This document shows, piece after piece, positions 3,872-32,000 of a stretch of DNA of 32,000 bases. The translations under genes and the position numbers were made by a program. Origin of the DNA: an uncultured bacterium. Lineage in GTDB: Bacteria; Auribacterota; Erginobacteria; Erginobacterales; CAZKCI01. The notes beneath the pieces were generated by a model that saw only the letters and a program-made list of their open reading frames with translations, made no database searches and was not told where the DNA came from. Each line of letters begins with the position of its first letter. Position 1 is the first letter of the stretch. The stretch is taken from assembly GCA_964551475.1 (NCBI GenBank), contig CAZKCI010000034.1:9326-41325 (forward strand), read 5' to 3'.

Positions 3872-4190
3872 ACAGAAACTCATCGCCGTCCTGATGGCCA
3901 TCGGCCTCCTCCTCTTCATCATCGAGGTGGTCCGCCGCCGCAAGCTCCGCGAGGAATACGCCTGGCTCTGGATCCTGGTCGGCGTGAGCGTCCTGCTCCT
4001 CTCCCTCTGGGAGAGCCTGCTCAATTCCCTGACCCGCTTCATGGGGATCCAGCTTCCCGCCAACACCGTCTTCTACTTCGGCTTGATGTTCATGATCTTC
4101 ATCAACCTCCACTTCTCGGTCAAGATCTCGCTCCTGACCAACCAGGTCAAGCGCCTGACCCAGGAGCTTGCGTTGGCCAAGAAGAAATGA
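3861..4190 (+). CDS. small 3-TM membrane protein, DUF2304-like
   Basis: LIAVLMAIGLLLFIIEVVRRRKLREEYAWLWILVGVSVLLLSLW...NTVFYFGLMFMIFINLHFSVKISLL..RLTQELA: three hydrophobic helices with the RRR.LRE.YA.LW motif and a C-terminal amphipathic helix. The frame is open from 3810. GTG 3861 (11-nt overlap with the GT2) or ATG 3894 are the plausible starts. Confidence 0.75.
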   Translation: MPFKQKLIAVLMAIGLLLFIIEVVRRRKLREEYAWLWILVGVSVLLLSLWESLLNSLTRFMGIQLPANTVFYFGLMFMIFINLHFSVKISLLTNQVKRLTQELALAKKK

Positions 4191-4195
4191 CACGA

Positions 4196-4309
4196 AGATG
4201 GGCTAGGGCTAGGTTATTGGTCTGGTGTGTGGGCAAAGACAGTGGTGCGGCCGGCCGTCACCACAGACCTGACCCTTGCCCAAACCATTGACCTAACCCT
4301 TGTCCAGTT
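4196..4309. repeat. intergenic palindromic element A (~114 bp, symmetric about GGCCGGCC at 4249..4256)
   Basis: Outer arms 4196..4220 and 4285..4309 pair at 18 Watson-Crick + 3 G:T of 25 positions. Core is GTGGTGC-GGCCGGCC-G(T)CACCAC. The G/T-rich left arm and C/A-rich right arm are homologous to element B (15/18 and 18/21 identities in the blocks compared). Confidence 0.6.
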
Positions 4310-9437: not shown

Positions 9438-12400
9438 CTATCTCGTCACCGGGATATCCCCCGCCGTCCCGAAGTAGGCCCGTGTGATCGCGAGGGCTCC
9501 CCACATCCCGGTCGCGGACCGGAAAATCCCCGGATCGTCGGTCCCGTTCCCGTCGTAATCGGCCGGGACGAGGTCGTCCCCGTTCGCCCCGAAGTAATAG
9601 CGGGTCAAGCCGGCCACCCCCCACATCCCCTGGCCGGGGCGGAAGATGGCGGCGCGGTCGCGGCCCTCTCCGGCGTAGTCGGCCGGGAGGGGCACGTCGG
9701 TGGAGACGCCGAAGTAGATCCGCGCTCCGCTTCGCGACGCCCACAGCCCCGGCCGGGGACGGTAGATCGCGGCCTCGTCCGTCCCGTCGCCGTCGTAGTC
9801 GGCCGGGACCGCCTGGTCGTCGGAGGATCCGAAATAGATCCGGCTGAGTTCGCGGACCGACCAGAGTCCGGCCGAAGGACGGAAGCCGGCGATATCGCAG
9901 AGGCCGTCGCCGTCGTAGTCGGCCGGGACCGGGAGGTCGAGTGAATTGCCGAAGTAGATCCGGGTGGAGTTCCGGATCGACCAGAGGCCGGCCGAAGGGC
10001 GGAAGACCGCCAGGTCCGCCGTCCCGTCGCCGTCGTAGTCCCCGGGGGCGGGCTGGTCGAGCGATCCGCCGAGATAAGCCCGGGTGAGGTCGCGGACCGA
10101 CCAGAGTCCGGAGGCGGAGCGGAAAACGGCCAGGTCCGCCGTCCCGTCGCCATTGTAGTCGCCGCTCTGCAGGATCCGCCGGGACGAGGCGGCGAAGCCG
10201 ATCTCCAGGGTGTAGTCGCTGACCGCGCCTTCGAAGCCGTCCACCACCAGGTAGTAGGTTCCGCCGACCGCGGCATATTCGATCTCCTCCTGGTAGCCGA
10301 GAGTGCTTCGGTCAACGCAGTCGTTGCGGTCCGGGCCGTCGCAGAGGAAGAGGTCGAGGTCGCCGGAGTAGGCGGTGAGCGAAGCCGTGATCGTTCCCGC
10401 TCCGGCCGCGAAAGCGTAGACCACGTCCGGTCCCGACTCCAGGTTGTAGGGGTAACAGCCGTACTGTCGGTAGTGGTCGAAGAAATCGGCGGTATCCGCG
10501 TCGGTCTGGAATCCGGCGGAGACGGAGAGAGGCCAGAGGAAGGTGTCTCCGGCCCGGGGGAGGGGCGAGGGAGACGGAGAGGGCGAGCGTCCCGGCGTGG
10601 GCGTGGGGGGCGTGGGCGAGGCGGTCCGCGTCGGTGACGCGGTCGGCGCCGGGGAGGCGGTGGGAGAGGGGCTGGGGGAAGGTATCGGCGTCGGCGACGG
10701 GCTCGCCGTCGGCGTGGGCGTGATCAAACGGGGGCTGGGCGTGGGGGAGGGGTCGAGGATGCCCCAGACCTCGACGTCGTCGAGGTTCCAGCCGCTGTAG
10801 CGGCGGATGTTGTCGGTGCGCCCCATCCCCCAGCGGAGGCGCAGGGCGCCCGCCCGGTCGGCGATCGCGGAGAGGTTATAGGAGAGTTCCGTCCAGGCGG
10901 CGTCGAGGACGGCCTCCCCCGGCCCGGCCGGGTTGGCCCAGACCGTCGTCCAGTTGGTCCCGTCGCTCGAGGCCTGCACCGAGGCGTGGTCGTTGGCCGC
11001 CTGCTCCACGTTCAGCCAGCGCCGGAAGCGGAGATAGGTTCCCACCGCGCGGGAAAGGTCGAGGGGGGAGGTGGTCAGATAGTAGGTTTCCGGCAGGTTG
11101 TTGGGGTAGTTGCCGGAGAGGTTGTAGCCGTAGACGTTGTCCCCGGTGTAGCCCGAGGCGGGGTCCGGGTTGCCGTAGGAATCGCCGCAGCCCTCGATCG
11201 GCGTCGGCGCCGGGCAACCCCCCTGCCCGAGCGGCTCCCCGAAAGCCCAGTCCGATTCGGTCGCCCAGCCCGGGTCGGTTTCCAAGTCGAAGGCGTAGAC
11301 TGCCTCCGGCCATTTGGCCGTCGGAGAGGGGGTGGGGGAGGGGGGGACGGTCGGAGAGGGTGTGGGCGTGAAGGTAAGGGTCGGGCTCGGGGAGGGCGTC
11401 GGCGTGGGCGGCGTGGGCGTGGTCGAGGGGCTGGGCGTGGGGGAGGGGGTCTCGATCGCGAAGGGGAGGTTGGCGGAAAACTCGGAGGTGGACCCCAGGG
11501 CGGTGGCCGAGTCGGCGGTGAGCCAGTCGCCGAGTGTCAGGCCGGCGAGTGTCTCGATCGACCAGGCCGGCTGATCGTCGGCCGGGAACGAGACCAGGAA
11601 ATAGAGCCCTTCCCCGGGTCCGGCGCCGTCGGTGTCGGCCGTGAAGAGTTCGACGGAGGAGCCCGGGCTTTTGGACCCCGTGACGCGGGCGGAGGTGTCG
11701 GAGAGCCAGGTGACCGCGGCGATCAGGGGCGCCGCCGCGCCCTCGTTGGCGCCGTTCCGGAGAGCGATCCCCAGCCCCCCGTTCTCGCGGAACGAGTTCT
11801 TCGTGACGAGGTTGTAGTAGGTCTCCGCCCCGTCGACGAGGCATCCGTCGCCGTTCCCGCTCTGGCCGTTGAAGGCGATCAGGTTGGAGGAGAAACTGTT
11901 GCCGGCCCCGCCCGCCGCCACCGCCGCGCCGCCGGAGAGGTTGCCGAGGCGGATCGTCCCTCCCGGATCGGTCCCGATCGCGTTCCCCGCGATCTCGTTG
12001 CCGCGGGCGGCTGTCCCCTCGATCCTGATCCCCGCCCCGGCGTTCCCCCCGATCACGTTCAGGTAGTAGGAGTCGGGGCCGCCGACCACGTTGGACTCCG
12101 CCGCCCAGCCCGCCCCCTCCGCGCCCTCCAGGAGCACCCCGTGGAGGGAGTTCCCGATCGCGTGGGCGGCGCCGCCGTCCGTCCCGATGAAATTGCCCTC
12201 GATCAGGTTGGCCGCCCCCCGGGTGATCCGGATCCCGCAGCCCTGGTTCCCGGAGATCACGTTCCCCTCGCCGGGACCGCTCCCGCCGATCCGGTTCTCC
12301 CGCGCGCCGGCCTCGATCAGGATCCCGCCGTCGGACTCGGCGGAGGTCCCATTCCCGAGCGGGGAAGATCCGTCGGCGGCGAGACCGATGACGGAGAAAC

Positions 12401-21796: not shown

Positions 21797-23497
21797 CTAT
21801 CTCGTCACCGGCGCGTCCCCCGTCGCCCCGAAATACACCCGGGTGAGATCCCTCACCGACCACATCCCCGCCGTGTCGCGGAAGACCCCCGCCTCATCGA
21901 CTCCATCCCCGTCATAGTCGGCCGGGAGAGCCCGGTCGCCGGTGCTCCCCAGATAGACCCGCGTCACGTTCCGGATGGACCACATACCGGTCGAGGGACG
22001 GAAGATTCCGGCCTCCCATCTCCCCGCGCCGGTGTAGTCCCCGGGGACGAGATCGTCGGTCGACGAGCCGAAATAGAACCTCGTCAGGTTCCGCACCGAC
22101 CACATCCCCGAAGATCCCCGGAAGATGGCGATGTCCCTGGCGGAGTCCGCGTCGTAGTAGCCGGGGATCACGGTATCGCCCGTGGAACCGAGGTAGATCC
22201 TGGTCAGATCCCGGATCGACCAGAGGCCGGAGGACTCGCGGAATATCCCCGCCTCGGCGACGCCGTCGCCGTTGTAGTCGCCCGTTGCCGGCTGATCGTT
22301 GGCGGCGCCGAGATAGAAGCGGGTGAGGCCCCGCACCGACCACATGCCGCTGGTCCCCCGGAAGACGGCGATGTCCGTCGTCCCGTCGCCGTCGTAGTCA
22401 GCCGGGACCAGGGAGTCGGTCGAGTTCCCGAAATAGGCGCGGGTGAGGTCCCGCACCGACCACATCCCCGTGCTCCCCCGGAAGACGGCGATGTCGCTCG
22501 TCCCGTCGCCGTCGTAGTCGTGGATCCAGGAGCGGGAACCGGAGGAGAGTTCTCCCCGGAAGATGTTTCCTCCTCCATCGCCGGCCCAGATCCCGCCGGG
22601 GCAGAGGCCGAGAGAGTCGATCCTGCTGCCGGAGAGATCGCCCGCGAGTGCCCAGTCCGAACCGTTGAAATAATAAACATAGCCGTAGTCGCCCCCGGCC
22701 CAGATGCTCTGGGCGTCTCTATCCGCGATCGAGAACATGTCCACCGGGTCCCCGTGGACGGAGACAAGCTGTGTGAACACGGACCACTCGCTCCCGTCAT
22801 AGTGGAGGATGTAGCCCTTGTCCCCCACCGCCCAGACATCGGTCTGGCTGACCGCGCAGATGTCCCGCAGGTTCGTTCCCATACCCCAGTCGACCTCGTA
22901 TTGGAGCGACCAGGAGCTGCCGTCGAAGAAGAGTATCTGCTCCGGGCCGGCGTAGGGTCCCCCCACGGCCCAGATGTGGCTGTTGTCCGTCCCGTCTATC
23001 CCTTGCCACAGATAGGTCGGATTGGTGACAAAAGTCCAGTCGGCTCCTCCGTCCAGGGAGCGGTAGATGTTGGCTCCGACCGCCCAGACATTATTCGAGT
23101 CGGCGGCGAAAACATCGTTGAGCCAGGTGGCGTATAAGATCGTGGTCTGGACAATCCAGGACGAACCATTGAAATAATAGATCATCCCGGCGCTGGAGTT
23201 GTCTCCGACCGCCCAGACATGAGTGGCGTCGTAGGCCCTGATCCCGCGCAGCTCGCCGGTCTGGACGGCGTAGACAGCCGTCTCCAAAGCCCAGGAGGCG
23301 CCGTCATAGTGGAAGAGCCTGCCCTGCCCCGAAAGATTCCCCGCTATTCCCCAGACGTCGCCCGAGTCAAGCGCCGCCAGGCCGACCACCGAATACGCGC
23401 CCAGGTCGGTGGAAAGGCTCCACTCCTGGGCGGGCAGGCGGGGGACCCATTGACAGCAACTAAACAAGAACAACAGGACGGCGGCTAATCTTTTCAC
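21797..23497 (-). CDS. secreted protein: 7-blade [VI]WA[VG]G beta-propeller-like N-terminal half plus six FG-GAP/VCBS-like repeats
   Basis: GTG 23497 is preceded by GGGGAGG. MKRLAAVLLFLFSCCQWVPRLPA signal peptide. Seven units of ..VWAVG..G.I..YDGS.W. (DVWGIAG, HVWAVGD, NVWAVGA, HIWAVGG, DVWAVGD, SIWAGGD, GIWAGDG). Six 40-aa repeats ending GDAPVTR-stop. Confidence 0.9.
   Translation of the reverse strand: MKRLAAVLLFLFSCCQWVPRLPAQEWSLSTDLGAYSVVGLAALDSGDVWGIAGNLSGQGRLFHYDGASWALETAVYAVQTGELRGIRAYDATHVWAVGDNSSAGMIYYFNGSSWIVQTTILYATWLNDVFAADSNNVWAVGANIYRSLDGGADWTFVTNPTYLWQGIDGTDNSHIWAVGGPYAGPEQILFFDGSSWSLQYEVDWGMGTNLRDICAVSQTDVWAVGDKGYILHYDGSEWSVFTQLVSVHGDPVDMFSIADRDAQSIWAGGDYGYVYYFNGSDWALAGDLSGSRIDSLGLCPGGIWAGDGGGNIFRGELSSGSRSWIHDYDGDGTSDIAVFRGSTGMWSVRDLTRAYFGNSTDSLVPADYDGDGTTDIAVFRGTSGMWSVRGLTRFYLGAANDQPATGDYNGDGVAEAGIFRESSGLWSIRDLTRIYLGSTGDTVIPGYYDADSARDIAIFRGSSGMWSVRNLTRFYFGSSTDDLVPGDYTGAGRWEAGIFRPSTGMWSIRNVTRVYLGSTGDRALPADYDGDGVDEAGVFRDTAGMWSVRDLTRVYFGATGDAPVTR
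21800..22522 (-). repeat. six tandem 120-bp coding repeats (FG-GAP/VCBS-like)
   Basis: Units start HDYDGDG, ADYDGDG, GDYNGDG, GYYDADS, GDYTGAG and ADYDGDG. The 20-mer GTCCCGTCGCCGTCGTAGTC at 22380 and 22500 is identical to 9781 and 10021 in the 1347-aa gene. Confidence 0.9.
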
Positions 23498-23984
23498 ATC
23501 GGGTTCCTCCCCTTGGAGATGGTATCTCCCGGTTAGTCTGATCCCACAGCTCGCCTATGAGTAGTTCAGCTCCGACTCCCTCTGCCGGATCCGGGCCTCA
23601 AGCTTGTTCTGCCACTTCCGGTCTTCGGTGTTCGCTCTGGTTTTGTTCATCTCGTCGCCGGCTGTTTGGTTCGTTCTCTCCGTGACAGCTCTTTCTGATG
23701 CGGTTCTCCGAGTGATATTACAGGGTAGCAAGAACCGTTCCGGATCGGCGGGTAATTTGAAATCGAGACACAACCGCCTAGGGAGCAACGAGATAATGGA
23801 CCGACCGGGATTGGGGCGGACGCGAAAGAGGGGAGAAGACGATGCAGCAATGCAACGCTTTTTCGGACGGGCATCCGGAAAGGGTGTGGTCCGAAAAACG
23901 CTCCCTGGTATAACCCGTTCATCCGACAGGCCTTGCGTACCGGTCGGGTTATCTCCGCCCGCCGATCCGTCTATAGAAGGGAGG
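23498..23984 (-). other. ~490-bp ORF-poor, visibly less GC-rich, highly structured leader/spacer upstream of 21797..23497
   Basis: No convincing ORF on either strand. Nested inverted repeats: 23741..23752 / 23958..23969 (12 bp), 23801..23808 / 23940..23947 (8 bp), 23859..23868 / 23889..23898 (10 bp), 23910..23917 / 23945..23952 (8 bp). GGAGAT-N3-ATCTCC hairpin at 23515..23529, abutting the SD. Confidence 0.4.
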
Positions 23985-23998
23985 AGGGACGGTGTCAA
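23970..23998 (-). promoter_or_regulatory. candidate sigma70-type promoter TTGACA-N17-TATAGA embedded in the left arm of the palindrome
   Basis: The minus strand reads TTGACACCGTCCCTCCTCCCTTCTATAGA. It would give a ~465-nt leader for 21797..23497. Confidence 0.4.
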
Positions 23999-24035
23999 AT
24001 TGTTAAGTTCAACTTAACAATTTGACACCGTCCCT
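23985..24035 (-). terminator. perfect 25-bp-arm palindrome (1-nt centre) downstream of the stop of 24057..25319
   Basis: AGGGACGGTGTCAAATTGTTAAGTT (23985..24009), c, AACTTAACAATTTGACACCGTCCCT (24011..24035): exact reverse complements. Confidence 0.6.
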
Positions 24036-24058
24036 GGTCCCTACCGTCCCTGGTCCCT
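24027..24058. repeat. 16-bp direct repeat ACCGTCCCTGGTCCCT x2 between the palindrome and the stop codon
   Basis: 24027..24042 and 24043..24058. The 15-mer ACCGTCCCTGGTCCC also occurs at 20402..20416 next to the other palindrome. Confidence 0.7.
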
Positions 24059-25319
24059 AGAGATGTTTTCCGAAAAAGGCGATCATGGCATCCCAGGCTT
24101 TGATCAGGGCGAGGGAGCTGTTCTCGACCGCGGAGGAGGTGAAGATCAGGTTCCGGCAGATCTGGGCCGCGGGGAGATAGGGCAGTCCGACCAGGTGTCC
24201 CGCGCCTTCTTCTTTGATGTATTCGCAGGGATGACGCTGCCCGCTCTGTTGGAGACGGGACACGATCATGTCCGCGAAATCGGAGGCCGGCCAGACCTGG
24301 TCATCCGTTCCCGCGACCAGAAAGGACGGACCGTTGATGTTTTCTACACGGATGGTTGCCTCGCCTCCGCCGCCGGCAGACCGGAGGCCTCGTTCATAGC
24401 TTTCACGGAAGGCGACAGTCTTCCCCCGGAAGAGCTGGAACATGGTCGTCACGGGGACTTTCATCCGCAGGAAGGGTATGGGTTTTCCCCCCTGAGTCCA
24501 GGAGCTGCTGGGACGGCGGAAGTTTAAGCCCTGCCAGACGTACGAGCTGCCGGAGACGGCCGCCACCGCCTTGATCCGCGGATAGAGGGAACCGAGCAGG
24601 AGGGCCAGTTCGCCTCCCTTCGAGAACCCATAGACGGCGAGGCGGTTGCAATCCACGCCAGGGTGTTTCTTCAGCCAGACGATCCCCCTCTCCAGGAACT
24701 CCAACGGGATCTCCTGCAGTTCCTTGGGCAGCGATCCGGCGTTGAAATAGGCCAGGGCAAAGGCCGCGTAACCGCGGGCCGCGAGGAGGGCGGCGCGCGG
24801 TTCGCTGAAACCGCCGCCCGAACCGCTCAGGCAGATGACGGCGGGGTGCGGTCCTTTTCCGGTCGGCAGGAAGAGGACGCCGGTCACGCCGTCGCGGTCG
24901 ATCGGCTCGCGGACCAACGCGCTTTCCGGCGGGCAGAAGATCCGCCGGATGGTTGCCCGGGACAGTGTCTCCCCGTCGGCTTCGACGGAAACTTCCACCT
25001 CGAGTGGCGCCACCGTGCTTTTCTCGAAGAGGGGGACGGGTTGGGCCTGATCTCCGTCCGGCCGCATCGACCAGAGGAGCGCTGACGGGTCGGGGACGGC
25101 GAATGTCCCCGCGGAGGGCGCCTGTTTAGAAACATCGATCGAACCCGAGCTGTCGCTGAGGAAGGTTCCCCAGGAGACCCAGTCGACGCCCGCTTCGTCC
25201 CGCGTCCGCGCCCGCAGCGTGATTTTACGAGACGGCGTCAGCCCGCGCACCGTCACGGCCGTCAAGGGTCGATCCGCCAGGGAATCCATCGGCCGGATAG
25301 CTATAGACGTCGTATTCAA
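24057..25319 (-). CDS. BAAT / acyl-CoA thioester hydrolase family alpha/beta hydrolase
   Basis: Collinear with the mammalian ACOT/BAAT layout as I recall it: N-terminal beta-sandwich (VTVRGLTPSRKITLRARTRDE...LLWSM), then GVLFLPTGKGPHPAVICLSGSGGG...ALLAARGYAAFALAYFN...LEFLERGIVWLKKHP...GFSKGGELAL (nucleophile elbow), GTDDQVW and GAGH. GGGAGG lies 8 nt before TTG 25319. No signal peptide. Confidence 0.9.
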   Translation of the reverse strand: MNTTSIAIRPMDSLADRPLTAVTVRGLTPSRKITLRARTRDEAGVDWVSWGTFLSDSSGSIDVSKQAPSAGTFAVPDPSALLWSMRPDGDQAQPVPLFEKSTVAPLEVEVSVEADGETLSRATIRRIFCPPESALVREPIDRDGVTGVLFLPTGKGPHPAVICLSGSGGGFSEPRAALLAARGYAAFALAYFNAGSLPKELQEIPLEFLERGIVWLKKHPGVDCNRLAVYGFSKGGELALLLGSLYPRIKAVAAVSGSSYVWQGLNFRRPSSSWTQGGKPIPFLRMKVPVTTMFQLFRGKTVAFRESYERGLRSAGGGGEATIRVENINGPSFLVAGTDDQVWPASDFADMIVSRLQQSGQRHPCEYIKEEGAGHLVGLPYLPAAQICRNLIFTSSAVENSSLALIKAWDAMIAFFGKHL

Positions 25320-25351
25320 TTCCAGGCCTCCCTTCGAGTTGCCAATAGAAG

Positions 25352-27757
25352 CTATTTCGTTCGCCCGGACAGGCGCTCGAGCGCGGAGCGGGCCGCCGGG
25401 AAGTCCGGATTGAGCGAGAGGGCCGTCTCCAGATGCCGACGGGCTTCGCCGCTGCGTCCCTGCTCAATCAACAGGAGGGCGAGGCCGTAGTGGGCGCGCG
25501 CGGAGCGGGGATCGATCTCGATCGCCTTCTCATAGCGGACGCGCGCACCCTCCGTGTCCCCCGCGAGGCTTAGGGTCGCGCCCAGGTTGAGATGGGCTTC
25601 GGCGTAGGCCGGGTCGATCTGGAGCGCCTGCTCATAGTGGCCGATCGCGCCGTTCCAGTCGCCTTTCCGGGCCAGGAGGTTGGCGAGATTGTTGTGCGCG
25701 TCGGCCAGGAGCGGGTTGATCGTGAGCGCCCGCTCGAACTCCTTCGCCGCCTCCTCGTTCCGTCCCAGGGCGGCCAGGGCATTGCCAAGGTTGTTGCGGG
25801 CGTAGGCGGAGCCGGGATGAAGTCGGATCGCCTCCCGATATTCGTCGATCGCCTCCCCGTAGGCGCCCTTTCCCCCCAGGGCGAGGCCGAGGTTGTAGTG
25901 GGCCTCGTCGGAGCCGGGCTTGATCGCGGCCACCCGGCGGTAATCGGCGATCGCCTCCTCGCCGCGCCCCAGGCGCTCCAGCGCGCTGGCGCGGTTGTTG
26001 TAGGCTTGGACGCATTCCGGGTTGATCGCGAGGGCCCGCGCGAAGAGTTTCATCGCCTCGTCGGTCTTCCCGATCTGGAACCAGGCGATGCCCAGATTGC
26101 TTAAGATCTCGGCCTTGCCCGGCTCCAGGCGGAGCGCCTCCTCGTACTCCCGGATGGCATCGGTATAGCGTCCCAAGGAAACATAGAGCGCCCCGAGGTT
26201 GTTATGGGACTGGAAATCCTCCGGGTCTTCGCCCAGGGCGGCCCGATATTCCTGGATCGCCTCCTCGGTCTTCCCTTCATTCGCCAGGGCGAGGGCGAGG
26301 TCGTAGTGCCACTTGGAGGCCGAGGCCCGGTAGCCGGTGGGATCCCGACTGCAGAGGAAGAAAAGAGCGAGCCCGGCGGCGGCCCAGCCCAGCGCTCGCA
26401 CCCAGCGGCGGTCGCGGGCAAGCCCGCTGACCCGGCAGATCCCGAGCGCGGAGAAGAGGAGAATCCCCGGGATGGCCGGGACGCGGTAGCGGGCCGCGGC
26501 GACGAAGGGAAGCATCGAGAGGAAATAAAGGCCGACAAAGGCGAGGACCAGGATTCCGAGGCTTCGCGTCTCCGCCCCCCCTGATTCTCGGCGGCGTCCG
26601 TCAAGGATGAAGAACGCCGCCCCGAGCAGGGCGAGGGCCAAGACGGCGGGGAAGTTGAGGGGGATGGAGCGGAGGACGGGAGAGCTCAGGCGCACGAAAT
26701 CCAGCTCCTTGATGTTGGCCACCTCCCGCGGCCCCCAGAAAAGGACGGCTTTCTTCGCGGTCAATCTCAGGAAATCGAGCGGGCGGTCCCGGATGAAGTG
26801 GACGGCCTCCCGGCCGTAGAGGGACGAGGCTTGCGCCCAGCCCACCGTCCCCGCCGGGAGACCCAGACCCCCCTCCAGGGACCTGACCGCCCGGGGGTAG
26901 TCGAAGGGGGAACCGAAGATGCCGTGGTAGGGGAGGTTGTGATTGGTCCCGTCCGCGAGCGGGTTGTTCCCGACCGCGAGGCTCATGCCCGCATTGGCGG
27001 CGATCGGGACGAACTCGCCGCCGACCAGGTAGTTCCGGACGGCGGCGGGGAACACCGCCAGCGCCGTCCCGAGGAGGAAGCCCGCCAGACCGAGACGGCG
27101 GCGGGCCGAATGGTCCCGTTCTGGCGCGGGGACGGAGGACCGCCCGAGCCAGGCGGCCGCGACGGGCCAGAAGAGGAGGACGTTGGGGCGGAAAAGGGCG
27201 GCGACGCCGAGCGCGAGCCCCGCGGCGAACCCCCGTTTCAGGCCTGGTTCTTCACGGCCGCGGGCGATCAGCCAGAGGAGGAGCAGGGAGAGGAAGGCCT
27301 CGAGCGAGGTCCCGAGCAGCTCCCCTTCGTAGTAGATGAAGATCCAGTAAAGCGCCATCAGCCCGGCATACACCAATCCCACCGCCGCGCCGAACGGGCG
27401 GCGCGCGAAAAGATAGGCGAGGAGCGCCGCCAGGAGCCCCGCCGCCATCTGCAGGAGGCGGGGGGCATACTGCCCCCGGCCGAAGAGGCGGTAGACGAGA
27501 GCGAGCCAGTAGGCGTAGCCGGGAGGGCGGAAGAACGGGCGGCGGCGAATCTGGGGGTCCGTTTCGTCCTCCGGGACGCGCCAGTCTCCCGTGGCGATCC
27601 CGTTTGCCCAGTAGTCGTGGTAGGAGGCGTCGACGGTGGGATGGGAGAACTCGGGATGGGAGGCGATCTCGACGAGGTAGAGCGCGCGCATAAGCGCGCC
27701 GGCGAGCAGGACGACGGCGAGGGCGAGATGCGCTCGAGTCTTAATGCTCCGGCTCAT
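25352..27757 (-). CDS. GT-C membrane glycosyltransferase (ArnT/PMT-like) fused to ~9-10 C-terminal TPR repeats
   Basis: The real start is ATG 27757 (MSRSIKTRAHLALAVVLLAGAL...). The 349 codons upstream in the 1150-aa ORF are Arg/Gly/Pro junk overlapping the lipoprotein gene in another frame. Polytopic N-terminal half with VDASYHDYWA loop motif. The C-terminal half is TPR units of the AHNNLG.AL type. Confidence 0.85.
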   Translation of the reverse strand: MSRSIKTRAHLALAVVLLAGALMRALYLVEIASHPEFSHPTVDASYHDYWANGIATGDWRVPEDETDPQIRRRPFFRPPGYAYWLALVYRLFGRGQYAPRLLQMAAGLLAALLAYLFARRPFGAAVGLVYAGLMALYWIFIYYEGELLGTSLEAFLSLLLLWLIARGREEPGLKRGFAAGLALGVAALFRPNVLLFWPVAAAWLGRSSVPAPERDHSARRRLGLAGFLLGTALAVFPAAVRNYLVGGEFVPIAANAGMSLAVGNNPLADGTNHNLPYHGIFGSPFDYPRAVRSLEGGLGLPAGTVGWAQASSLYGREAVHFIRDRPLDFLRLTAKKAVLFWGPREVANIKELDFVRLSSPVLRSIPLNFPAVLALALLGAAFFILDGRRRESGGAETRSLGILVLAFVGLYFLSMLPFVAAARYRVPAIPGILLFSALGICRVSGLARDRRWVRALGWAAAGLALFFLCSRDPTGYRASASKWHYDLALALANEGKTEEAIQEYRAALGEDPEDFQSHNNLGALYVSLGRYTDAIREYEEALRLEPGKAEILSNLGIAWFQIGKTDEAMKLFARALAINPECVQAYNNRASALERLGRGEEAIADYRRVAAIKPGSDEAHYNLGLALGGKGAYGEAIDEYREAIRLHPGSAYARNNLGNALAALGRNEEAAKEFERALTINPLLADAHNNLANLLARKGDWNGAIGHYEQALQIDPAYAEAHLNLGATLSLAGDTEGARVRYEKAIEIDPRSARAHYGLALLLIEQGRSGEARRHLETALSLNPDFPAARSALERLSGRTK

Positions 27758-27855
27758 GACGAATGGTCTCCCCGCGGCGCGGGGGCAGCGAAGAAGAATC
27801 CGAGGGAAGGATTGTATCAGGAAACGAAACGGGGGGCGCCAGGGGAAAACGGGGA

Positions 27856-28878
27856 TCAGGGCGCGGCCACCGCGATTTTTCCGCCGGCGACATTCCGCAT
27901 GGCCCCGTCGGCCCTCAGGGCGACCGAGAAATTCCGGCCCTGGCGCTCGACGATCACGCCGTCGATCGGCTCGTCCTCCTCGAGGATCTTGACCTCCATC
28001 CCTTCCGCCAGCGACCGGACGCGGAACTTCTCCCGCTCCAGGTCCTCCTCGGGGAATTCCGGATTGAAGTAGCGGACGGTGAAGACCCTCGCGTAAGCTC
28101 GGACGACGGTGGCGGGATGCCAGTAGCCGTCGTCGGCCTTGAAGACCAGGATTTCGGTCCCTGTCTCCAGGTTCCAGTCTTCCGGGCCGAGGACCTCGGG
28201 TTCCGGAGTGGGCAGGGGACCGGTCTCCGCGGGCGCCTCCGGCGCGGGATCGAGGTTGCTCTCCGGTGTCGGCATCGCCTCCGGGTCCAGGGTCGCGGCG
28301 GACTCGCTCTCCGGCGTGGGCGCGACGGAGACCGCCACGAACTCCTCGAACGCGCTCGGCGGCGGGGGAGTGGCACGGCGGGGCGGGACGGCTTTGGCTG
28401 GGAGCAGTCCGCCGGCGCCGGCTGGCGTTGGCCCCGGTCCGGGCGTCTCCCCTCCCGGCCGGGCCTTTCCCGTCCCCGTAGGCGGGGCGATGGTGAAGAT
28501 CAGCGTCGACAATTCCTTGTCGTTGCGGAGCAGGAGAACCAGGTAGGATCCGGGCGGCAGCTCTTCGGTGTGGAGATCGCAAGCGACGAACGGCGCCGGC
28601 GTCTCGGGCTTTTCGACGATGAGCGACATCAGCTCCCAGTTCCCCTGCTCGTCCCGGAAGGAAAGCTGGAAGCCGATCTGGTCTACGGTGGGCTCCTTCG
28701 GCCGGTAGACCGCCCGCGCCGCCTGCCCGGCGGGGAGGGTGGCCCCGAGTCGCTTCCCGGCGCCGTCGGCCAGGAAAAATTCCCAGACGTCCGGCTTCCG
28801 GCAACCCCCGGCGAAAAGAAAAAGGGAGAGCAGCGCCAGGACCGGCGCTGCTCTCCCTTTGGCTGCTCTATCAGACAA
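27856..28878 (-). CDS. putative lipoprotein with Pro-rich linker and C-terminal SH3/Tudor-like region
   Basis: The TTG start is preceded by GGAGGG, which sits right after the PLD stop. ALLSLFLFAGGC fits the lipobox pattern. It has a P/T/E-rich linker. The C-terminus ILVFKADDGYWHPATVVRAYARVFTVRYFN resembles Tudor/agenet-like barrels; that fold call is inference only. Confidence 0.75.
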   Translation of the reverse strand: MSDRAAKGRAAPVLALLSLFLFAGGCRKPDVWEFFLADGAGKRLGATLPAGQAARAVYRPKEPTVDQIGFQLSFRDEQGNWELMSLIVEKPETPAPFVACDLHTEELPPGSYLVLLLRNDKELSTLIFTIAPPTGTGKARPGGETPGPGPTPAGAGGLLPAKAVPPRRATPPPPSAFEEFVAVSVAPTPESESAATLDPEAMPTPESNLDPAPEAPAETGPLPTPEPEVLGPEDWNLETGTEILVFKADDGYWHPATVVRAYARVFTVRYFNPEFPEEDLEREKFRVRSLAEGMEVKILEEDEPIDGVIVERQGRNFSVALRADGAMRNVAGGKIAVAAP

Positions 28879-28892
28879 TGACGCCCTCCGCC

Positions 28893-29903
28893 TCAGTACG
28901 TGGACTTGTAGGTGTACACGTAGATGGCGTTGGTCTTGTAGGAGCTGGTGACGGTGGAGTTGAGGATGGTCACGCAGTTCTCATCGTTGTCGTCGTCGGC
29001 GGACGCGGTCCAGTTGAAGGAGCCGGTGATCGTGCGCGGGGAGGACGTGGTCCCGCCGTCGATGGCCATGTACTTGTCGTGGAGAAGGCCCGCGTAGGCG
29101 TCCTTACGGACCGCGCAGCCCGCGCTCTTCATTGTGGTGTAGGTGCTTCCCGCCTGCCAGCTGTCGAAGGCCCCCTGGACCGTGACCCCGGCGTTTTTGC
29201 GGGCGATCAGCGCGTCCTGGATGGACGTGTCGGTGAAGGTGAAAATGTCGAAGTAGATGGAGGTGTTGGCGCTGGCGATGTGGGAATTGACGGCGGTGCG
29301 GACAGCGGCCTTGGGCGAGAAGTAGACGTAAACGGTCGACCCGTCAACCGTGGTGGAGCCGGAGTAGTCGACCTTGCTGGCGCCGAACGTCCCCGCGTAC
29401 ATCTGGAGAAACTCATTCTTGTACATGGTGGCGAGCGTGGCGGAGCCGCTGAAGATGATGATGTTGTTCTTGTCCGCCGTGGTCTGGTCGGTGCTGAAAT
29501 TGTAGGATCCGGTCACCACCTTGGTCCCGTCCGCAACGATGAACTTGTTGTGCATCAGGGCGGAGCGGTTGTCTTCGACGACCGGGATGCCGGCGGCAAC
29601 GAGGGAATCGTAGGAGGCCTGGTAGCCGGCTTTCCAGCGGTAGTCGGTCTCGGTCACGACCCGGACATCCACCCCTCTTCCCTTGGCGGAGATCAGGGCG
29701 TTGACGATCGAGGGCTGGTTCAAAGCATAGATGGCGACGTAGCAATAGCTCGTGGCCGCACTGATGACCGCAACGACCCTGGTGTCGATGGAGTTGGAGG
29801 TCGGGGGGGTGTTGAAATACACGGACATCGTCGCCTGGGAATCGGGGGCGAAAACTGCCATCAGGGAAATCGCTACCAGAACCGCCGTCAGCTTCACTCT
29901 CAT
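28893..29903 (-). CDS. secreted PLD-superfamily protein with two HKD motifs (tandem Nuc-like)
   Basis: MRVKLTAVLVAISLMAVFAPDSQA signal peptide. HKD1 is LMHNKFIVADGTKVVTGSYNFS. HKD2 is LLHDKYMAIDG...ITGSFNWTASADDDNDEN. GGAGGG lies 7 nt before ATG 29903. Visibly lower GC than its neighbours. Confidence 0.9.
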   Translation of the reverse strand: MRVKLTAVLVAISLMAVFAPDSQATMSVYFNTPPTSNSIDTRVVAVISAATSYCYVAIYALNQPSIVNALISAKGRGVDVRVVTETDYRWKAGYQASYDSLVAAGIPVVEDNRSALMHNKFIVADGTKVVTGSYNFSTDQTTADKNNIIIFSGSATLATMYKNEFLQMYAGTFGASKVDYSGSTTVDGSTVYVYFSPKAAVRTAVNSHIASANTSIYFDIFTFTDTSIQDALIARKNAGVTVQGAFDSWQAGSTYTTMKSAGCAVRKDAYAGLLHDKYMAIDGGTTSSPRTITGSFNWTASADDDNDENCVTILNSTVTSSYKTNAIYVYTYKSTY

Positions 29904-29969
29904 AACCGCCCTCCCTCGGGTTGGGATCTATTATTGGCTCTGGGACGCTGCGAACATCTTATGTAAGAA

Positions 29970-29984
29970 GCAATTGCCGTGCCA
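29970..29984 (-). promoter_or_regulatory. sigma54 (RpoN) promoter TGGCAC-GGCAA-TTGC
   Basis: The minus strand reads TGGCACGGCAATTGCTT: an exact match to both the -24 (GG) and -12 (GC) elements at canonical spacing. It lies ~65 nt upstream of the PLD start and immediately downstream of a sigma54-dependent activator gene. Confidence 0.7.
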
Positions 29985-30009
29985 ACACCGCATTAGGGAT
30001 GAAATAATA

Positions 30010-30047
30010 TACAACATATTGTACAGCAACATGATATGATATTGTTG
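30010..30047. promoter_or_regulatory. AT-rich inverted-repeat sites, candidate activator (UAS) or bending-protein sites
   Basis: TACAA-CATA-TTGTA (30010..30023) and CAACA-N11-TGTTG (30027..30047), 30-75 bp upstream of the sigma54 -24 box in the most AT-rich stretch of the window. Function inferred. Confidence 0.3.
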
Positions 30048-30111
30048 GTATTGGCCTGATCGCGAGTAAAAAGGCATTATGGCCCTATCGACTGAAAAGC
30101 TGCGGGAAATA

Positions 30112-30128
30112 AGGGCCAAAATGGCCCT
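30112..30128 (-). terminator. 7-bp hairpin AGGGCCA-AAA-TGGCCCT overlapping the regulator stop codon
   Basis: Read directly. On the minus strand it is followed by TATTT. ATGGCCCTAT also recurs at 30079..30088. Confidence 0.35.
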
Positions 30129-31509
30129 ATTTATGGTCCTCGGAAGGGGAAAGTTCTCGGGGGGAGATGCGGTAGTAAGCAAGCTTCCGCTTCAATGAAC
30201 GGTGAGGGCAGGAGAGTTCGCGGGCGGCCTTGGCGACATTTCCTCGCGTCCGGCGGAGGGCTTCCTCGATCAGGCATTTCTCGAAGACGCTGACCTTGTC
30301 TTTCAGCGCATCTCCGCCGCCGGGACAGAGGCCGTTCGGCTTGGCCGTGCCGCGCACGGCCTCCGTCAGATTGTCGCGGGAGAGGATGCCGTTCTTGAGG
30401 CCGGCGGAGGCCGCCTTGAGGACATTCTCCAGCTCGCGGACGTTCCCGGGCCAGTCGTGGCCGAGGAGGCAGTTCATGGCCTCCGGCGCCACCGGAATGC
30501 CGGTCCCGTCCGGGCGGCGCAGGAAATGATCGATCAGGAGGGGGATATCCTCCTTCCTCTCCCGGAGCGGCGCCACCCGCAGGGAGAGGACCTGGAGCCG
30601 GTAGTAGAGATCCTTGCGGAACTTCCCCGATTTCACGGCCTCTCCCAGATCCTCGTTGGTGGCGGCGATGACGCGGATGTCCGCCCGGACCGGCCGGTCG
30701 CCTCCCAGGGGGTCGAACTGCTTCTCCTCCAGCGCTTGCAGGAGCTTGGACTGGGCGGCCAGGCTCAAGGTCGCCACCTCGTCCAGGAAGAGCGTGCCGC
30801 CGTGGGCGGAAAGGATCTTGCCCTTTCTCTCCTGGAAGGCCCCGGTGAAGGCGCCCTTCTGATGGCCGAAGAGCTCGCTCTCCAGCAGTGTCTCGGGCAG
30901 GGCGCCGCAGTTGACCACGACAAAAGGGCCTTTCGCCCGTCCGCTCCCCTGGTGGATGGCCCGGGCGATCACGGATTTCCCGGTCCCGGTCTCGCCCGCG
31001 ATCGTGGCGCTGAGCTCGCTTCCGGCGGCCTTCTCGATGAACTCGTAGACCGCCCGCATGGCCGGGCTTCTTCCCACCAATCCCGGATAGGGGGAATGGG
31101 CTTTGAGCTCCCGGCGCAGCGACTTTACCTCGCTGACCAGCGCGCGGTGCCGGGCGACCTTCTCCAGGATGGCGAGGAGTTCCTCCCCGTTCACGGGCTT
31201 GGACAGGTAATCGAAGGCCCCTTTCCTCATCGCGTCCACCGCGTCCTTGATCGTCCCGAAAGCGGTCATGAGCAGGAGGGTCAGGTCCGGAAACTTCTCC
31301 CGCACCGCTTCCATCAGCTCGTGGCCGTTCATCTCCGGCATCCTGACGTCGGTGATGAGGACCTGGAACTCCGCGGTCTCCAGTATCTTCAGCGCCCGGG
31401 AGGGCCGGTCCGCGGTCTTCACCTCGTAGCCGGACATCTCGAGAAAGGCGCTCAGACTTTTGAGGAGGTTCGCCTCGTCATCCACCAGCAGAATCTTGAG
31501 TTTTCTCAT
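30127..31509 (-). CDS. sigma54-dependent response regulator (NtrC/AtoC family): receiver + AAA+ + Fis-type HTH
   Basis: KILLVDDE...VLITDVRMPEMNG receiver. Walker A GETGTGKS. GAFTGA sigma54-contact loop. FLDEV Walker B. R-finger region YRLQV. C-terminal NVAKAARELSCPHRSLKRKL HTH. Confidence 0.93.
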   Translation of the reverse strand: MRKLKILLVDDEANLLKSLSAFLEMSGYEVKTADRPSRALKILETAEFQVLITDVRMPEMNGHELMEAVREKFPDLTLLLMTAFGTIKDAVDAMRKGAFDYLSKPVNGEELLAILEKVARHRALVSEVKSLRRELKAHSPYPGLVGRSPAMRAVYEFIEKAAGSELSATIAGETGTGKSVIARAIHQGSGRAKGPFVVVNCGALPETLLESELFGHQKGAFTGAFQERKGKILSAHGGTLFLDEVATLSLAAQSKLLQALEEKQFDPLGGDRPVRADIRVIAATNEDLGEAVKSGKFRKDLYYRLQVLSLRVAPLRERKEDIPLLIDHFLRRPDGTGIPVAPEAMNCLLGHDWPGNVRELENVLKAASAGLKNGILSRDNLTEAVRGTAKPNGLCPGGGDALKDKVSVFEKCLIEEALRRTRGNVAKAARELSCPHRSLKRKLAYYRISPRELSPSEDHK

Positions 31510-31510
31510 C

Positions 31511-32000
31511 TCAGCCCTTCCCGGGGAGTTCGATGGTGAATTTCGCGCCCTTCCCGGGTTCGCTCTGCACGGAGATGGATCCGTGGTGGGTCTCGACGGC
31601 GCGGTGGACCTGGGAGAGTCCGATGCCGGACCCGTCGCTCTTGGTGGTAAAGAATATATCGAAGATGTTTTTCTGGATGGCCGGGTCGATCCCGCAGCCG
31701 TTATCCTCGAACTCGAGGATGATCCGCTCCCCTTTCCGGGAGGTGGTCACCTGGATGCGTCCTCCCGGCTTCACCGCATCGAGGGAGTTGCGGAAAAGGT
31801 TGAGGACGGCATGGTGAAACTCGTCCCGGTCGAGGTCAAGCGCGGGGAGGTCCGCCGCCAGCGAACAGGAGAGTCGGACTTTTCTCTGCAGCAGTTCAGC
31901 CAGGAGGCTTTTGCTGACACCCGCGATGACGGCGTTGAGATCGGACTTTTCCAGATGGCTGGCAACGGGCCGGCCGAAGGTGATGAGACGATCCACCAGG
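31511..32000 (-). CDS. sensor histidine kinase, C-terminal HATPase_c part (5' end outside the window)
   Basis: NLFRNSLDAV (N box), EDNGCGI (G1) and GSGIGLSQV (G2). Its stop is 1 nt from the regulator start, so the two form one operon. Confidence 0.85.
   Translation of the reverse strand, partial: LVDRLITFGRPVASHLEKSDLNAVIAGVSKSLLAELLQRKVRLSCSLAADLPALDLDRDEFHHAVLNLFRNSLDAVKPGGRIQVTTSRKGERIILEFEDNGCGIDPAIQKNIFDIFFTTKSDGSGIGLSQVHRAVETHHGSISVQSEPGKGAKFTIELPGKG

Follow-up and report, generated by a model that had tools for sequence, protein, structure and literature searches.

Introduction

The sigma-54 promoter glnAp2 of Escherichia coli carries two NtrC sites near -140 and -108, and the DctD, AtoC and ZraR systems are comparable. 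Here, we describe a predicted switch of this type in a 32,000-nt stretch of DNA (the window; C34:9326-41325 of genome G000) from an uncultured sediment lineage for which, to our knowledge, no regulation is known. The assembly comprises 3.44 Mb in 144 contigs and has 63% GC. Within the window, a sigma-54 -24/-12 element lies between the genes of an NtrC-type two-component system and a gene for a secreted protein of the phospholipase D (PLD) family, which is directly followed by a lipoprotein gene. We propose that these components make up a dedicated sigma-54 switch for a secreted Nuc-type PLD enzyme and its partner lipoprotein, and we consider this model, taken as a whole, to be probably correct.

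The locus shares with the glnAp2 type a -24/-12 element, a two-component activator of the NtrC family with a GAFTGA motif and a Fis-type helix-turn-helix, and a pair of dyad-type sites that lie over 100 bp upstream and face the same side of the helix (their spacing here is 42 bp). The AT-rich spacer could bend, and the genome contains one gene of the HU/IHF family. The differences lie in the site sequence, which is GGGCCA-N3-TGGCCC, in the sensor, which is a soluble GAF kinase, and in the target, which is a secreted PLD enzyme rather than a gene of nitrogen or carboxylate metabolism. In addition, the regulator is AtoC/NtrC-like but falls under every equivalog cut-off in NCBIfam.

Intra-operon partial terminators and translation-sensitive attenuators are known regulatory types, and the window contains a terminator-like hairpin after the PLD gene that resembles them. 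A GC-rich stem and U-tract stand between two cistrons, the first gene would be expressed in excess, and ribosomes could influence folding. Unlike the known attenuators, the whole element lies inside the n- and h-regions of a signal peptide and is thus dual-coding, and neither a leader peptide nor a ligand-sensing domain is evident at this locus. Further downstream, a GT-C glycosyltransferase recalls the PMT- and TMTC-type GT-C O-mannosyltransferases with TPR, in that a PMT_2 membrane domain is followed by TPR repeats. Actinobacterial PMT-type enzymes glycosylate Pro/Thr/Ser-rich linkers, and the lipoprotein of the window has a linker of this type, which might be modified in the same way. However, the GT-C protein belongs to a multi-copy family whose copy at this locus is absent from two genomes.

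The PLD-family enzyme has HKD motifs and the Nuc-type minimal PLD fold in common with Nuc (pKM101/Salmonella, 1byr), NucT and Zucchini/MitoPLD. It carries a signal peptide, as Nuc and NucT do, but consists of two fused domains where Nuc is a homodimer. PLD3 and PLD4 resemble it in being single-chain pseudo-dimers, although identity to these proteins is 16% or less. A PLD-family gene under sigma-54 control has been described in Chlamydia trachomatis, where the CtcB/CtcC-sigma-54 regulon directly controls CT084 together with membrane proteins and exported proteins or lipoproteins (PMC7482065). CT084 can be likened to the gene studied here by family only, and the Chlamydia regulon is global and developmental, whereas the regulator in the window looks dedicated to one promoter.

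Results

A conserved sigma-54 promoter precedes the PLD gene

The minus strand between the regulator and PLD genes carries TGGCACGGCAATTGC at 29984..29970. The initial annotation had identified this site as a sigma-54 consensus with correctly spaced GG and GC doublets, and the match is exact; with its flanks, TGGCACGGCAATTGC also agrees with the extended consensus YTGGCACGR-N3-TTGCW at all specified positions. The element starts 142 nt after the regulator stop (30127) and ends 66 nt before the PLD ATG (29903), in keeping with the approximately 140 bp and 65 nt given previously. The spacer between the two genes, which had been called the most AT-rich of the window, is indeed its lowest-GC stretch (GC 0.375 at 29961..30080). 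Transcription is predicted to start near 29958, about 12 nt after the GC element.

A lone exact site in 32 kb is not significant, as matches with at most one mismatch were found in 61 of 100 shuffles of the window. The initial annotation had suggested two genomic checks, a search for rpoN and a scan for further sites. The host genome encodes a complete rpoN, a 475-aa open reading frame (ORF) on contig C118 with AID, CBD and DBD domains. The scan for exact TGGCAC-N5-TTGC sites returned 10, whereas the reversed control gave 2. Each of the 10 lies between genes and points towards an ORF that begins 9-107 nt downstream (161 nt on C52, using the start that is preceded by a Shine-Dalgarno sequence). 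They include sites before a prepilin-like gene (C1), a DnaK-like gene (C29:4396), a glutamate-synthase-like gene (C52) and a truncated PspF-like activator (C112).

We compared the locus across its order, which has 14 genomes, seven of which carry the PLD and lipoprotein genes as a pair. Six of these seven bear the sigma-54 element (G000 and its relatives G001, G005, G006, G008 and G013), and their promoter regions were aligned (alignment A1). The -24/-12 element is kept in G001, G006, G008 and G013 and takes a degenerate form (TGGCGT), TGGCGTGGAAATTGC, in G005. Its position in the five relatives is -61 to -82 from the ATG, within diverged DNA, and the leader varies from 32 to 56 nt across the six genomes. 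The alignment contains only four conserved islands, which are two candidate activator sites, the -24/-12 element, and the ribosome-binding site with the ATG. With rpoN present and the element conserved in five relatives, the claim of a genuine sigma-54 promoter between the NtrC-type pair and the PLD gene holds. Just upstream of the GGAGGGCGG ribosome-binding site, a CCAACCC motif is also conserved in most of the six genomes (29904..29930; A1 columns 290-312), beyond what the ribosome-binding site alone would need.

An adjacent activator and two candidate upstream sites

The regulator consists of a receiver, a Sigma54_activat AAA+ domain, an AAA lid and a Fis-type helix-turn-helix, with the Walker A motif GETGTGKS at residue 172 and GAFTGA at residue 219. 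Only 1 nt separates the kinase stop from its ATG. The domains, motifs and gap bear out the earlier description of a sigma-54 activator adjoining a kinase gene. The kinase gene extends beyond the window to the equivalent of position 32866 (C34 40836..42191), and its 451-aa translation is without a membrane segment and therefore soluble. Kinase orthologues in G001, G005, G006 and G008 are 67-75% identical, and the G013 copy is fragmented and about 40-45% identical; regulator orthologues are 75-80% identical.

The genome contains six full sigma-54 activator genes. In five cases an exact site follows on the same strand, within approximately 400 bp at four of the genes and at about 1.6 kb for the one on C1. 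For the four activators with such a site other than the regulator described here, the loci are C1:30874, C29:13819, C98:1883 and C134:22023. This distribution indicates that local-activator design is the rule in this organism. The initial annotation had presented the locus as an operon type that was not recognised, which overstated the case: this is the usual local-activator arrangement, found at five of the six activators in the genome.

Two of the conserved islands in A1 are candidate binding sites for the regulator. Site 1 is the dyad GGGCCA-N3-TGGCCC, and site 2 (GGGCCA-NAA-TGCC) has a perfect left half-site and a weak right half. Measured from the predicted start, the centre of site 1 falls at -162 to -164 in all six genomes and that of site 2 at -119 to -122. 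Their spacing of 42-44 bp (42 bp here) corresponds to about four helical turns, and both keep their position relative to the -24 element to within 2 bp. From this geometry, sites 1 and 2 are predicted to be the likely enhancer. That role had previously been given to inverted repeats at 30010..30047. These repeats are not conserved in the relatives of A1 and were rejected as an enhancer, and inspection of the same stretch by eye gave no good match to the IHF consensus.

Exact GGGCCA-N3-TGGCCC dyads occur at two other places in the genome, on C3 and C69. Both are inside coding sequence and without a nearby sigma-54 site, and we rejected them as further targets, considering them chance matches. 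Since the only other dyads lie in genes, the regulator appears, from its predicted operator, to be dedicated to the PLD promoter.

Proposed mechanism

In the model that we propose, the soluble GAF kinase would sense an intracellular signal and phosphorylate the adjacent NtrC-type regulator. The regulator would then bind the two sites centred at approximately -162 and -120 and activate sigma-54 polymerase at 29984..29970, so that transcription starts near 29958. The first and main product would be the secreted PLD enzyme with its two HKD motifs. A hairpin and U-tract 32 nt past the PLD stop would probably end or attenuate most transcripts. Read-through, perhaps aided by ribosomes crossing the stem, would yield the lipoprotein and, in G000, possibly the GT-C/TPR and BAAT proteins encoded further downstream, and the palindrome at 23985..24035 would close the gene string. 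The most likely role of such a switch is the regulated degradation of extracellular nucleic acid in sediment.

If the model is right, it supplies a promoter, enhancer and activator set from an uncultured sediment lineage, with a predicted operator (GGGCCA-N3-TGGCCC) and a geometry that can be tested. The regulatory design is textbook and does not overturn current understanding, and the operon looks unusual largely because of the genes that happen to lie next to one another. The most useful additions are the dual-coded terminator and the fixed enhancer geometry.

Table. Features of the locus, in window coordinates.
Feature	Coordinates	Strand	Basis
Histidine kinase, 3' part	31511..32000	minus	Pfam GAF-HisKA-HATPase
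NtrC-type response regulator, sigma-54 activator, 460 aa	30127..31509	minus	Pfam, NCBIfam, motifs
Candidate site 1, dyad GGGCCA-N3-TGGCCC	30113..30127	minus	Conserved island in A1
Candidate site 2, GGGCCA-NAA-TGCC	30071..30085	minus	Conserved island in A1
Sigma-54 -24/-12 element TGGCACGGCAATTGC	29970..29984	minus	Exact 15/15 match, conserved in relatives
Secreted PLD-family protein, two HKD motifs, Nuc/NucT/Zucchini-like, 336 aa	28893..29903	minus	Pfam PLDc_2 x2
Terminator-like element	28811..28860	minus	18-bp perfect stem, 4-nt loop (28860..28821), then TTTTTCTTTT
Lipoprotein, 340 aa, TTG start	27856..28878	minus	GC at third codon positions (GC3), structure model
GT-C (PMT_2) membrane glycosyltransferase with C-terminal TPR, 801 aa	25352..27757	minus	Pfam
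BAAT / acyl-CoA thioesterase-type hydrolase	24057..25319	minus	Bile_Hydr_Trans 85.4 and BAAT_C 102 bits
Perfect palindrome, 25-bp arms	23985..24035	.	After BAAT stop

The main target is probably a secreted Nuc-type nuclease

The PLD protein is a single chain with a Sec signal peptide. It contains two HxK(x)4D...GSxN motifs, and the residues H118, K120, D125, H275, K277 and D282 are invariant in 41 sequences. Its nearest relatives by sequence are the Nuc endonuclease (1byr), Helicobacter NucT and Zucchini. Against the NucT equivalog models (NCBIfam NF010490-NF010493) the best score was 57.6 bits, compared with a cut-off of 297, which places the protein outside the equivalog; judged by these scores, it is related to NucT and is not NucT itself. 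The structure model has a predicted local distance difference test score (pLDDT) of 94.9, and the best fold matches are the single-chain 5' exonucleases PLD3 and PLD4, with template-modeling (TM) scores of 0.70-0.75. Family members elsewhere carry ComEA-type helix-hairpin-helix or lamin-tail domains as fusion partners. Based on its nearest relatives, folds and domain fusions, the protein is probably a secreted Nuc-type nuclease, acting in the extracellular space or the periplasm.

Alternatively, the protein could act on lipids, as a phospholipase or lipid transferase involved in envelope remodelling, which is what has been proposed for PLD genes in the sigma-54 regulon of Chlamydia. Source annotations name relatives of the protein "cardiolipin synthase-like", its fold also matches PLD1, PLD2 and the bacterial phospholipase D 7e0m, and the C. 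trachomatis regulon combines CT084 with membrane proteins (PMC7482065). However, the closest characterised sequences are nucleases, and one of them, Zucchini, is itself deposited as "mitochondrial cardiolipin hydrolase". The top fold matches are PLD3/PLD4 exonucleases bound to single-stranded DNA, and the fusions to ComEA-type helix-hairpin-helix and lamin-tail domains are typical of extracellular DNA-handling proteins. A lipid substrate is therefore rather unlikely. A Nuc-type PLD that is probably an extracellular DNase, placed with a lineage-restricted lipoprotein under signal-dependent, all-or-none control, would bear on how sediment bacteria use extracellular DNA.

Orthologues of the PLD protein, with 47-84% identity, are present in 7 of the 14 genomes of the order. 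More distant PLD orthologues (~50% identity) lie on two contigs; these genes are solitary, with no regulator, lipoprotein or sigma-54 site, and were rejected as members of the cassette.

A lineage-restricted lipoprotein accompanies the PLD gene

The lipoprotein gene is found in the same 7 of 14 genomes as the PLD gene and is always adjacent to it. The co-occurrence of the two is thus strict, and in the proposed model the lipoprotein would be a surface partner of the PLD enzyme. The protein consists of a signal peptide with a lipobox Cys, a beta-sandwich (31-131), a disordered Pro/Thr-rich linker and a tandem Tudor module (236-338). Its structure model contains two confident domains, and the tandem Tudor is like those of 53BP1 and Agenet. 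Searches of Pfam, NCBIfam and the PDB returned no sequence matches, and the family has 17 representatives among 1.84 billion. The lipobox reads ...LFLFAGG-C; its Cys is kept in G001, G002, G005, G006 and G013, and none is evident in G008. With a GC3 of 0.84, the frame is clearly coding. An overlapping 1150-aa ORF (25352..28804) is a shadow frame over its first 349 codons, where its GC3 is 0.52, and we did not accept this part as a gene.

The arrangement of the two halves varies among relatives (loci compared: L015 2671..3716, L017 7662..9154 and L018 10776..11933). The lipoprotein is a single fused gene in G000 and G006, and its halves are in different frames in G001. In G005, G008 and G013, two genes take its place, one for a small lipoprotein with the beta-sandwich and one for a secreted tandem-Tudor protein that has a signal peptide of its own, and G002 has the first, beta-sandwich half only. 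Because the halves are separate in G005, G008 and G013, the lipoprotein gene in the window is a fusion.

The long contigs of G013 call for some caution. In this assembly (L018 = G013:C19:365000-384000), the PLD, regulator and kinase genes are each split over two frames, likely through indel errors of the assembly. These frameshifts make frame-based arguments from G013 unsafe. In the signal-peptide region of the G013 lipoprotein, across the hairpin described below, the frame also appears shifted and the nucleotides are conserved.

A conserved hairpin in the lipoprotein signal peptide

The lipoprotein start codon, TTG or GTG in every genome, lies 14 nt past the PLD stop, and this short distance means that expression of the lipoprotein needs read-through from the PLD gene. 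A hairpin begins 32 nt past the PLD stop, within codons 7-23 of the lipoprotein signal peptide. Its folding energy is -38.6 kcal/mol (z -4.5). All seven genomes have a hairpin at this position, and in six of them a T-run follows the stem. Compensatory double changes, C-G to G-C in G001 and G-C to A-U in G013, support the stem within this small sample of seven related genomes, and G002 has a different, unrelated 22-bp stem at the same place. Of the 236 stem-plus-T-run elements in the genome, 116 follow a stop codon on the same strand by no more than 120 nt, and only approximately 14 are located inside ORFs of the same strand. This distribution indicates that such elements behave as terminators in this genome and that one inside a gene is exceptional. 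The hairpin probably terminates or attenuates transcription after the PLD gene, as its stem and T-run suggest. The unusual conservation of the lipoprotein signal peptide may result from the constraint on the stem, and a terminator within signal-peptide codons would be a neat case of dual coding. The initial annotation had named transcripts ending right after the PLD gene as an outcome that would speak against its operon. Given the conserved hairpin, this may be partly true, with the remaining transcripts reading through.

Alternatively, the hairpin could act on translation or RNA stability, for example by slowing ribosomes on the signal peptide or by shielding the 3' end of the PLD mRNA once this has been processed. 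In every genome it is part of a translated region and follows a weak start codon (TTG or GTG) by 21 nt, ribosomes would unfold the stem, and the 14-nt gap leaves no room for a lipoprotein promoter, so that some RNA must pass. On the other hand, only a terminator needs the T-run that six of the seven genomes have, and the stem-plus-T-run elements of this genome sit overwhelmingly after stops. We consider a role without termination to be rather unlikely. Termination and translation could, however, be coupled, and a ribosome-sensitive attenuator at the hairpin is a reasonable way to read the element. In a more elaborate form, a ribosome at the TTG or GTG would melt the stem of a translation-gated attenuator and thereby set the ratio of nuclease to lipoprotein; the tandem Tudor module of the lipoprotein would serve to tether the nuclease to extracellular DNA or to load it there, and the GT-C/TPR protein would glycosylate the lipoprotein linker. 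This combination, with all of its parts, strikes us as decidedly unlikely.

Sites 1 and 2 probably belong to the PLD promoter

The first base of site 1 is also the final G of the regulator's TAG stop, a 6-bp hairpin is possible there and T-rich sequence follows in most genomes. These features would fit a site that is merely the intrinsic terminator of the kinase-regulator operon, in which case the PLD promoter would be driven through other sites or by another activator, of which the genome has five more full copies. Two relatives argue otherwise. The kinase-regulator pair of G005 (76% identity) lies apart from the PLD gene, on a different contig, with an ArsR-type gene behind it. The G005 PLD gene has a divergent gene upstream, and yet its promoter keeps both sites, while the dyad that follows the stop codon of the relocated regulator is no longer intact. 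The two sites of G001 both have an altered left half (GCGCCA and CCGCCA). The paired half-site changes in G001, together with the retained sites and the broken dyad in G005, indicate that the sites belong to the PLD promoter and not to a regulator terminator. Moreover, site 2 repeats the half-site of site 1 at a distance of 42-44 bp, the spacing to the -24 element is almost invariant, and a stem of only 6 bp is weak by the standard of other terminators in the genome. A terminator-only role for site 1 is thus improbable.

The conserved core ends with the lipoprotein gene

Kinase, regulator, promoter, PLD and lipoprotein genes follow in the same order in G001, G006, G008 and G013. The gene coordinates and the gaps of 14, 98 and 32 nt reported previously for the downstream string are all correct, and the perfect palindrome at 23985..24035 is present. 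A single four-gene sigma-54 unit did not survive the comparison, as BAAT is never linked in the relatives and GT-C is linked in three of six.

The GT-C protein matches PF13231 with 47.4 bits (cut-off 26.1), together with many TPR families. G001, G005 and G013 have an orthologue behind the lipoprotein gene, whereas the locus lacks one in G006 and G008, so that four of the six promoter-bearing genomes have it when G000 is included. The family has at least 8 paralogues in the genome, with 31-56% identity over the membrane domain (C74, C137 with two copies, C28, C88, C43, C46 and C73), and the relatives have similar numbers. In the 98-nt gap between the lipoprotein and GT-C genes we found neither a terminator nor a conserved promoter; a conserved internal promoter was rejected, as the gaps of G000 and G001 are unrelated. 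The GT-C gene may be reached by read-through. BAAT orthologues are 64-67% identical in G001 and G006 and 40% identical in G013, and they lie on other contigs or about 190 kb away. Because these orthologues are unlinked, BAAT is only a neighbour in G000 and not part of a conserved unit. Judged by gene order, the conserved core is the kinase, regulator, promoter, PLD and lipoprotein, and GT-C is variable.

One obligatory sigma-54 transcript over the PLD, lipoprotein, GT-C/TPR and BAAT genes, with all products in one pathway, would accord with their common strand and short gaps, the last two of which contain no canonical terminator, and with the strong palindrome after BAAT. RNA from a relative that spans the lipoprotein stop into the gap, described below, points the same way, as does the GT-C synteny in four of six cassette genomes. 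The unlinked BAAT orthologues of G001, G006 and G013, the absence of GT-C from the locus in G006 and G008 in a family with at least 8 paralogues, and the strong conserved terminator-like hairpin after the PLD gene all stand against it, and we regard such a transcript as quite improbable.

The motif itself is so unlikely to be a chance match or a sigma-70 promoter that this can be set aside: one match with at most one mismatch is expected per window and a 9-of-12 sigma-70-like match (TTGGCA-18-TAAGAT) overlaps the element, but the -24/-12 sequence is conserved in five relatives and the -10-like hexamer is not, the genome has rpoN, an activator gene is adjacent, and exact sites are enriched genome-wide and all intergenic.

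Observations that weigh against a dedicated switch

Several observations weigh against the proposed switch. Site 2 is only half palindromic, and site 1 with its T-rich tail, which was flagged on the plus strand, could terminate the kinase-regulator operon. The PLD fold is common to true phospholipases and vaccinia F13, and the NucT models all score far under their cut-offs. The hairpin is inside a real ORF, where it may instead serve to stabilise an mRNA 3' end, to mark a processing site or to control translation. No sigma-54 site or adjacent regulator was found for the PLD and short lipoprotein genes of G002, which shows that sigma-54 control is not intrinsic to the gene pair and suggests, on promoter sequence, that the G002 pair uses a different promoter type. 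A sigma-70-like match, TTGACA-N17-TATTTA, lies ~235 nt upstream of the G002 PLD gene (L019 ~9700..9740).

None of the RNA runs searched contains the window DNA itself. One sediment metatranscriptome yielded short contigs, at a depth of 3-10, from a relative that is ~95% identical to the window. These map to the PLD gene (29117..29638), from the lipoprotein stop into the gap (27770..27941) and to the GT-C gene (27267..27409). No contig covered 29842..30095, an absence that is uninformative at this low depth. The contigs are weakly compatible with a start downstream of the promoter and some read-through. They also belong among the points against the switch, as the run is shallow, comes from a relative and could include DNA carry-over, and is too sparse to place a start or a 3' end.

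Flanking sequences

The palindrome after BAAT is the likely end of whatever transcript arrives there. It is preceded by a tandem duplication of GGGACCAGGGACGGT (23985..24058), and an Rfam scan of 23400..30300 gave only spurious miRNA-hairpin matches at the palindrome. At the other end of the locus, an FG-GAP/VCBS-type propeller gene lies upstream of the kinase gene, outside the window, and a stretch of ~119 nt within it recurs near-identically ~480 nt away (L022 3704..3823 and 4184..4303). The assembly break at the end of C34 is probably due to this repeat, which sits right there.

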